Assembly: GCF_003334785.1 (NCBI RefSeq)
Contig: NZ_QOWV01000052.1
Source: Escherichia coli
GTDB taxonomy: Bacteria > Pseudomonadota > Gammaproteobacteria > Enterobacterales > Enterobacteriaceae
Strand: one strand, 5' to 3'
DNA length: 3,108 nucleotides
Numbering within the stretch: the stretch's first letter is position 1; every line of letters starts with the position of its first letter. The notes under the pieces were generated by a model, which saw nothing but the letters and a program-made list of their open reading frames with translations, did not search any database and had not been told where the DNA came from. Both the position numbers and the translations under genes were made by a program. Below are positions 1 to 340 of the stretch, piece after piece.

Positions 1-183
1 AGGAGCCAGCGCCCACCTGCCGTGCTAATCCACCACTCCGATCGAGGTTCACAGTACTGCGCATACGATTACCGGGTGGCATGCACTGGCGAAGAAGCGG
101 CAGGCATAAGCAGGAACGTCACGCGAAATACCCCGCTATCGGTAACTCAGCCTGTGTGTCACGGCATCATGAGGTGTTCCTGA
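1..183 (+). pseudogene. IS3-family transposase OrfB-like remnant (3' portion, apparently frame-disrupted)
   Basis: Frame +1 is open from the window start to TGA at 181-183 and translates to ...AVLIHHSDRGSQYCAYDY... The HSDRGSQY segment (nt 34-57) matches the conserved second-Asp segment of IS3-family DDE transposases. Residues downstream do not follow the expected OrfB pattern in any single frame, suggesting frameshifts or decay. The region is GC-rich, unlike the adjacent cargo. Confidence 0.45.
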
Positions 184-340
184 ACGGGACTCGGCACCGT
201 GGTAATATGCAAACAGGTTGCACATGAAGGGCTGCACATCATTTTAACTGTGATTACGGCATCCATCCGTACCCGATGATGAGCAGGGAAGCACAAGTGC
301 AGGCAACAGCAGTCATTGCCGGCAGCAGAGGAGGCGGAGG
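1..340 (+). mobile_element. Degenerate IS3-family insertion-sequence remnant; right boundary uncertain (somewhere ~280-350)
   Basis: Contains the OrfB-like remnant above. Base composition drops from GC-rich to AT-rich near 350. No clean terminal inverted repeat could be identified, so the end coordinate is approximate. Confidence 0.35.

Follow-up and report, generated by a model that had tools for sequence, protein, structure and literature searches.

The first 77 nucleotides of the stretch of Escherichia coli DNA that we analyzed (the window, 3,108 bp) are almost certainly the inner end of an IS600 copy that has lost its 3' part, and the arrangement around them is almost certainly the outcome of routine IS turnover on an IS-rich virulence plasmid. 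IS600 belongs to the IS3 group of the IS3 family; it was first found in Shigella sonnei and is common in Shigella and in STEC and ETEC strains of E. coli. It is an already known element, and the arrangement described here is ordinary mobile-element debris. Beyond annotation its importance is small, and such practical effects as it has are local.

The window is 100% identical to positions 73288 to 76395 of the E. coli plasmid pWP7-S17-ESBL-04_2 (NZ_AP022179.1), and it differs by one base from the unnamed plasmid of strain FDAARGOS_1248 (L003). For positions outside the window we use a segment of NZ_AP022179.1 consisting of the window plus 8 kb on each side (L001), in which window base n is L001 position 8000+n. 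The relatives compared were pSTEC299_1 (L002), pNMBU-W12E19_01 (L004), p2-S1-CAM-01-A (L005), and LT719075.1, and the collections searched held 20,395 E. coli records and 72,556 plasmids. The annotated order in L001 starts with DotU/tssL, a frameshifted tssM, tssH, and an "IS3 family transposase" pseudogene that is missing its C-terminus; it continues with a VasL-domain protein, a 171-aa "kinesin," and a hypothetical protein; and it ends with a partial "transposase," a complete IS600 on the minus strand, more IS fragments, and eatA. The plasmid is an IS-rich E. coli virulence plasmid that carries both eatA and a type VI secretion system (T6SS) cluster. Two of its genes differ in state between the two sequenced plasmids: tssM (L001 866 to 4271, L003 869 to 4273) is frameshifted in pWP7-S17-ESBL-04_2 and intact in the FDAARGOS_1248 plasmid, while eatA shows the opposite pattern, being intact in pWP7-S17-ESBL-04_2 and frameshifted in the FDAARGOS_1248 plasmid.

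The left IS600 copy starts 888 nt upstream of the window. In full it occupies L001 7113 to 8077 and corresponds to IS600 nt 1 to 965, with its last 77 nt (IS600 nt 889 to 965) at window 1 to 77 on the + strand. These 77 nt are 100% identical to the right-hand IS600, and PGAP annotates the copy as a pseudogene. Base 77, a T, is common to the IS600 fragment and the native flank. Frame 1 of window 1 to 78 reads RSQRPPAVLIHHSDRGSQYCAYDYRV, which includes the second D of the DDE triad, and the frame reaches a TGA stop codon at 181 to 183. On its own, the 60-aa translation from the window start matched NCBIfam transpos_IS3 with E=6e-5. With the full sequence of the truncated OrfB, drawn from the parent plasmid, the match to transpos_IS3 reached E=3.6e-72, and there was also a match to Pfam rve (6e-21), covering only positions 2 to 87 of the 102 in the model. 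An earlier, sequence-only reading of the window had recognized an HSDRGSQY-containing OrfB remnant of the IS3 family on the + strand here, and these matches bear it out: the motif is real.

Using BLAST, we obtained a single match between the tssH-vasL interval and the right-hand region, 968 nt long, 100% identical, and inverted. A separate repeat search agreed, returning inverted arms of 975 nt separated by 3216 nt, and base-by-base extension placed the limits of identity at L001 7110 to 8077 versus 12261 to 11294. IS sequence accounts for 965 of the 968 identical nt; the three extra are GTT, which adjoins the IRL in both copies. The IS600 pair thus forms a 965-bp perfect inverted repeat with 3216 bp between its arms. 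That GTT lies just outside the IRL (in IS orientation) of both copies, at L001 7110 to 7112 and 12259 to 12261, may reflect target preference or chance (about 1 in 64).

To the right of window 77 the DNA is not IS-derived. Because IS-free plasmids are contiguous and 99 to 100% identical there, we assign window 78 to 466 as the native spacer between tssH (clpV) and the vasL gene of the plasmid T6SS cluster. The stretch from window 77/79 to 200 is 99 to 100% identical in 11 E. coli plasmids that have no IS at the site. In pSTEC299_1, the flank to the left of the IRL directly adjoins the flank to the right of window 77, bar CACC(T) (...CCGATGTT CACCT GGCATGCACTGG...), and p2-S1-CAM-01-A supplies a second empty site that is the same as that of pSTEC299_1 bar one SNP; the empty sites of the left copy read GATGTTCACCTGGCATGC and GATGTTCACCTAGCATGC. 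Scans of the window returned no promoter-like, terminator-like, or Rfam matches. In pNMBU-W12E19_01 (L004 about 5990 to 6010 compared to window 78 to 116), the tssH-vasL spacer is about 40 bp shorter and the match starts at window 117, so the length of the spacer varies independently of IS600.

The sequence-only reading had extended the remnant over positions 1 to 340 and described it as a decayed transposase whose downstream reading frame is broken. Its extent has to be corrected: the IS ends at window 77, and the rest is native spacer that is matched in IS-free plasmids. Placing the boundary at 77 rather than 340 prevents the tssH-vasL spacer from being taken for a decayed transposase. The frame does break; the cause is not decay, but read-through from the truncated IS into unrelated native DNA. 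Nor does "decayed" describe the copy itself, which matches the intact copy without a single substitution and appears to have been cut short by one deletion.

The empty sites also bear on whether the left fragment could be the junction of a homologous recombination or cointegrate event between two IS600-bearing replicons. The region is a mosaic of IS600, IS2-like, IS911-like, and IS66 fragments, as such an origin might lead one to expect; against this, the two flanks of the fragment are contiguous in IS-free relatives bar 4 to 5 bp, with no accompanying rearrangement. We consider a junction of this kind extremely improbable, and the empty-site alignments rule it out.

The element at the right edge is a complete IS600 of exactly 1264 bp (L001 10995 to 12258) that starts at window 2995. 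Window 2995 to 3108 holds, on the minus strand, its IRR end and the C-terminus of orfB, with the orfB stop codon at 3038 to 3040; the translated C-terminus reads ...RRHSRLGNISPAAFREKYHQMAA*. The IS3-family OrfB C-terminus that had been noticed on the minus strand is the end of IS600 OrfB. PGAP labels the element [quoted passage not shown] and its length, inverted repeats, and ORFs agree with that label. The ends are TG...CA inverted repeats (IRL TGAGGTAGCCTGAG...; IRR TGAGGTGTACTGGC...), orfA and orfB overlap at an A7 run, and orfAB coding spans IS nt 65 to 1221. The right copy thus shows the full set of IS600 features: a length of 1264 bp, both IRL and IRR, an orfAB joined by a −1 frameshift at A7, a DD(35)E rve domain, and a 3-bp TSD. 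The TSD is AAC, with one copy at window 2992 to 2994 and the other at L001 12259 to 12261, outside the window; the corresponding empty site in L005 reads GAAAACCATAGAAG. Many copies labeled IS600 by PGAP share 99.6% identity with the right copy over 1264 bp, and the name rests on these labels. Compared to the nearest copy of the common E. coli type, the chromosomal IS600 of FDAARGOS_1248, the plasmid variant departs at five positions.

The two edges of the window therefore carry one family in inverted orientation, as the earlier reading had held, and in fact the very same IS, 100% identical. Aligning the left remnant with the right-hand element at the nucleotide level, a check proposed with that reading, gave 100% identity over 965 nt. 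With 965 nt of IS sequence shared, the two are clearly not elements of unrelated IS3 subgroups that have no sequence in common. The left copy, which is nt 1 to 965 of the complete one with no substitutions over those 965 nt, has the plasmid-type base at all three variant positions in its span (760, 911, and 927). Because plasmid-type bases are common to both copies at 760, 911, and 927, the two appear to be sisters, or else copies homogenized by conversion. Part of the 100% identity could stem from gene conversion between the copies rather than from recent duplication.

A third IS600 copy of the same variant is present on the chromosome of WP7-S17-ESBL-04 (NZ_AP022177.1; L007 1130 to 2376) and differs from the plasmid copy by one mismatch. 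A 17-bp deletion in it takes part of the A7 run plus the next 13 nt (the BLAST gap falls at IS nt 319 to 335). This deletion fuses orfA and orfB into a single uninterrupted 379-aa ORF. Judging from this ORF, the chromosomal copy may make OrfAB without frameshifting, and no OrfA.

The left copy lacks IS600 nt 966 to 1264, and with them the catalytic E, the last 84 residues of OrfAB, and the IRR. Its OrfB ends ...YDYRV, 24 residues short of the catalytic E in NAPME, at the point where the complete copy continues as ...YDYRV-IQEQFGLKTSMSRKGNCYDNAPMESFW... In the complete element, the E of NAPME lies at +36 when the count starts at the D of HHSDRG, in keeping with the DD(35)E spacing that IS3-family transposases are known to have. 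The left copy has the D...D part of this domain (HHSDRG) without the E, so its DD(35)E (rve) domain is incomplete. Of the two terminal inverted repeats it has the IRL, at L001 7113, and no IRR; the fragment end, ...ACCGGGT, is not IR-like. Instead of a 3-bp TSD it has GTT on the left only, and 4 to 5 bp of target, CACC(T), are lost on its right compared to the empty sites. It differs from known IS600 in each of these respects (nt 966 to 1264, the TSD, and the missing 4 to 5 bp of target) and, as far as its sequence can tell, is an IS600 remnant rather than an IS600 element. We rejected a cryptic internal IRR-like end, by which a shortened element would itself have transposed: the end reads ...CCGGGT where ...CA would be expected, and the target has lost a few bases instead of gaining a duplication.

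Because the catalytic E and the IRR are missing, the left copy is unable to transpose alone, in agreement with the earlier judgment that it looks nonfunctional. With the IRL alone, it would have no transposase, no two-ended mobilization, and no normal IRL-IRR circle junction. Its orfA (from IS nt 65) and A7 slippery site, both of which lie upstream of the window, are the same as in the complete copy, and only orfB is truncated. With the IRL, orfA, and the frameshift site kept, the left copy may still express OrfA, a protein that modulates transposition in IS3-family elements such as IS911. Another possible product is an OrfAB stub without catalytic activity that ends in 35 foreign residues. 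The copy and vasL point the same way and are 389 bp apart, with the copy upstream, so it could have a polar effect on vasL. The insertion may exert such polarity on vasL and the downstream genes of a plasmid T6SS cluster that is already eroding, as seen in the frameshift in tssM in one of the two plasmids.

A two-step history would lead to the left copy as we see it. An IS600 of this variant would have inserted at ...GATGTT|CACCTGG..., probably duplicating GTT, just as the right copy duplicated its target, likewise GTT in IS orientation. About 306 bp would then have been lost in a single deletion that took IS nt 966 to 1264, the presumed second GTT, and CACC, joining ...CCGGGT to GGCATGC at 1 nt (T) of microhomology. 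We infer the order of insertion and deletion, and the GTT duplication, because the presumed intermediate, with IS600 still full-length at the left site, is absent from the records searched: a synthetic query composed of the last 150 nt of IS600, GTT, and 150 nt of native flank gave no matches covering at least 80% of it in either the E. coli records or the plasmids.

The deletion may have been a random spontaneous event, or the transposase may have initiated it at the IRR, by way of strand transfer that was abortive or "sloppy," or of a resolution of the type associated with IEE, the IS-excision enhancer protein. We regard initiation by the transposase as a possible but somewhat unlikely cause. 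It would account for an outer endpoint no farther than about 7 bp beyond the presumed IRR/TSD, although this is one event, and the proximity of its endpoint could be coincidence; the 1-nt microhomology is uninformative. Transposase-dependent, IEE-enhanced excision and flanking deletions have been described for IS3-family elements, including IS600, on which IEE acts (PMC9397093; bioRxiv 10.1101/2023.06.07.543989), and a "sloppy strand transfer" or primer-realignment model provides for transfer to non-end targets (bioRxiv 10.1101/2023.06.07.543989, section 11). However, sloppy strand transfer by itself is not expected to delete donor DNA under copy-out (bioRxiv 10.1101/2023.06.07.543989). The present deletion resembles the transposase-dependent or IEE-type deletions of IS629 and IS600 in having an endpoint a few bp from an IS3-family terminus and minimal microhomology; it differs in that the described events are precise excision or flanking loss, whereas here the IS end and 299 bp of its interior were removed.

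A more specific form of this idea strikes us as doubtful. The left copy would be the footprint of an aborted IS3-family copy-out, in which cleavage by the transposase at the IRR was followed by strand transfer into the interior of the IS, or by primer realignment there, perhaps with the aid of IEE, leaving the IRL and orfA behind. If this were true, the strain would hold a trio of IS600 forms, one wild-type, one encoding only the regulator, and one (the chromosomal fusion) supplying transposase constitutively, and the trio could inform the tuning of IS600 activity and the immobilization of IS copies.

Inverted IS copies on either side of a set of genes had suggested a composite-transposon-like unit. 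One and the same IS, IS600, does occur twice around a passenger, and at least one of the two copies has a transposase. There is no TSD around the whole unit: the outer flanks on the + strand are GTT on the left and AAC on the right, and the AAC on the outer right flank belongs to the right copy's own AAC/AAC TSD. Neither a second genomic context nor a foreign passenger was found, as the pair occurs in two near-identical plasmids and one context. Both junctions of the left copy, the truncation and the IRL, are present in 2 of the 20,395 E. coli records, and the same two are the only ones among the 72,556 plasmids to contain the whole window in full. A search for the intervening genes flanked by these elements in other genomes, which had also been proposed, accordingly returned only two near-identical plasmids with the same context.

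In the relatives, the DNA between the copies is found where the copies are absent. LT719075.1 matched window 77 to 2994 without interruption, precisely the stretch that separates the two IS600 segments, and the match to L005 halts at window 2994 and restarts right after IS600. The upstream tssM-tssH DNA and the downstream DNA are collinear with IS-free relatives on both sides of both copies. Because relatives without IS600 keep the gene order, orientation, and flanks, both copies inserted in place, independently. From these comparisons we infer that the IS pair did not bring in the intervening genes, which belong to the ancestral backbone of the plasmid. The T6SS-associated genes there are best annotated as backbone, not cargo. 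Overall, ancestral synteny, the right copy's own AAC/AAC TSD, the lack of a shared TSD, and the single context speak against a composite-transposon-like unit, and in the sequences compared nothing shows, and we find no support for the idea, that the pair moved as a composite transposon.

In its strongest form, that idea would have an old, decayed IS3 copy of about 340 bp and the right copy make up a composite transposon that delivered the intervening genes, and we give this next to no credence. The layout is suggestive: the same IS lies inverted on either side of roughly 2.9 kb of non-IS sequence, each outer end is an IS600 IRL, and the ORFs of the right copy are intact. However, the left copy has no substitution in 965 nt, and window 78 to 340 is native spacer; the passenger genes sit in ancestral order, orientation, and flanks where both IS600 copies are absent; and GTT versus AAC is no direct repeat, the right copy having its AAC/AAC TSD and the pair its one context. 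The likeness to Tn6330 (ISApl1-mcr-1-ISApl1) is of the same kind. There too, one IS occurs twice around non-IS genes with one copy part-deleted near an IS end (the "demise" stage), but here the bracketed genes are ancestral, no TSD surrounds the pair, the insertions were independent, and the arrangement was never a moving transposon.

A pair that did not arrive as a transposon might still be mobilizable now as a pseudo-composite, with the right copy's transposase acting on the outward IRLs (L001 7113 and 12258) and moving vasL, the 171-aa ORF, and the IS2-like fragment. We judge this to be improbable. Both IRLs are intact and identical, an intact orfAB is present in cis, and the chromosomal IS600 with its orfA-orfB fusion in the same strain is a potential source of constitutive transposase; on the other side, no second context occurs in the 20,395 E. 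coli records or the 72,556 plasmids. In IS3-family elements, as known for IS911, an IRL-IRL circle junction would miss the -35 element of the junction promoter, which is borne by the IRR, and the IRL-IRR pair of a complete copy is the preferred substrate. An IRL-IRL junction formed here would accordingly be without the IRR -35 element, and the right copy's own IRL-IRR pair would be preferred. Two independent insertions into ancestral backbone, with the left copy truncated after its own insertion, remain our preferred reading.

The companion suggestion that the two copies could serve as recombination substrates holds in principle, since the two copies make up a perfect inverted repeat of 965 bp. 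RecA could use the 965-bp arms to invert the 3.2-kb segment between them. Only the ancestral orientation is seen in both sequenced plasmids (n=2). A 965-bp inverted repeat can support inversion, and it can also mislead short-read assembly.

The first gene between the two IS600 copies, at window 467 to 1618 on the + strand, is a VasL-domain or TssA-like T6SS gene of 383 aa. It is annotated by PGAP and lies in its ancestral position, with synteny in L002, L004, and L005. The 383-aa protein has a weak match to the TssA model TIGR03362 (E=2.4e-5) that falls under the curated cutoff. The second gene, at window 1784 to 2299 on the + strand, is the 171-aa ORF that PGAP calls "kinesin," which is kept downstream of vasL in related plasmids. 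There it shows 80 to 98% amino acid identity, long N-terminus included. Searches with the 171-aa sequence gave no Pfam, NCBIfam, or significant PDB sequence match, and the AlphaFold model, built from a 3-sequence alignment, has a mean pLDDT of 35 and is unusable. As a guess and nothing firmer, the product could be a papain-like cysteine peptidase, and possibly a T6SS effector, given the invariant residues C25 (LNCGWYC), H109 (GVNHYVLI), and D127 (IQDP).

Downstream, window 2411 to 2644 on the + strand holds a gene remnant whose 3' part is cut off by an IS2-like element; the homology to L002 ends at window 2629. The full-length ortholog of the remnant in pSTEC299_1 encodes 187 aa (L002 7262 to 7825), and it is annotated as DUF8616 in one related plasmid. 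The gene, taken over window 2335 to 2644, is a pseudogene, with an in-frame stop in its N-terminal part compared to the pNMBU-W12E19_01 ortholog and its 3' end cut at about 2629.

The remainder of the interval, window 2629 to 2994 on the + strand, belongs to an IS2-group element of the IS3 family and comprises its left end together with the 5' part of its orfA, whose CDS starts at 2720 (match to NCBIfam "IS2 repressor TnpA," E=1.4e-41). Its left end reads TGAGCTGGCCCCCTGAAATACC... on the + strand; the element is split by the right-hand IS600 and continues at L001 12262 to 13000. When IS600 and one AAC are removed, the IS2-like orfA frame is restored as ...GKKT|MEVEILKEA, and L005 carries the uninterrupted version. 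In L001, the IS2-like piece is joined downstream to a decayed orfB with stop codons, making the region a nest of IS fragments; the C-terminal part of that decayed orfB we take to be IS911-like.
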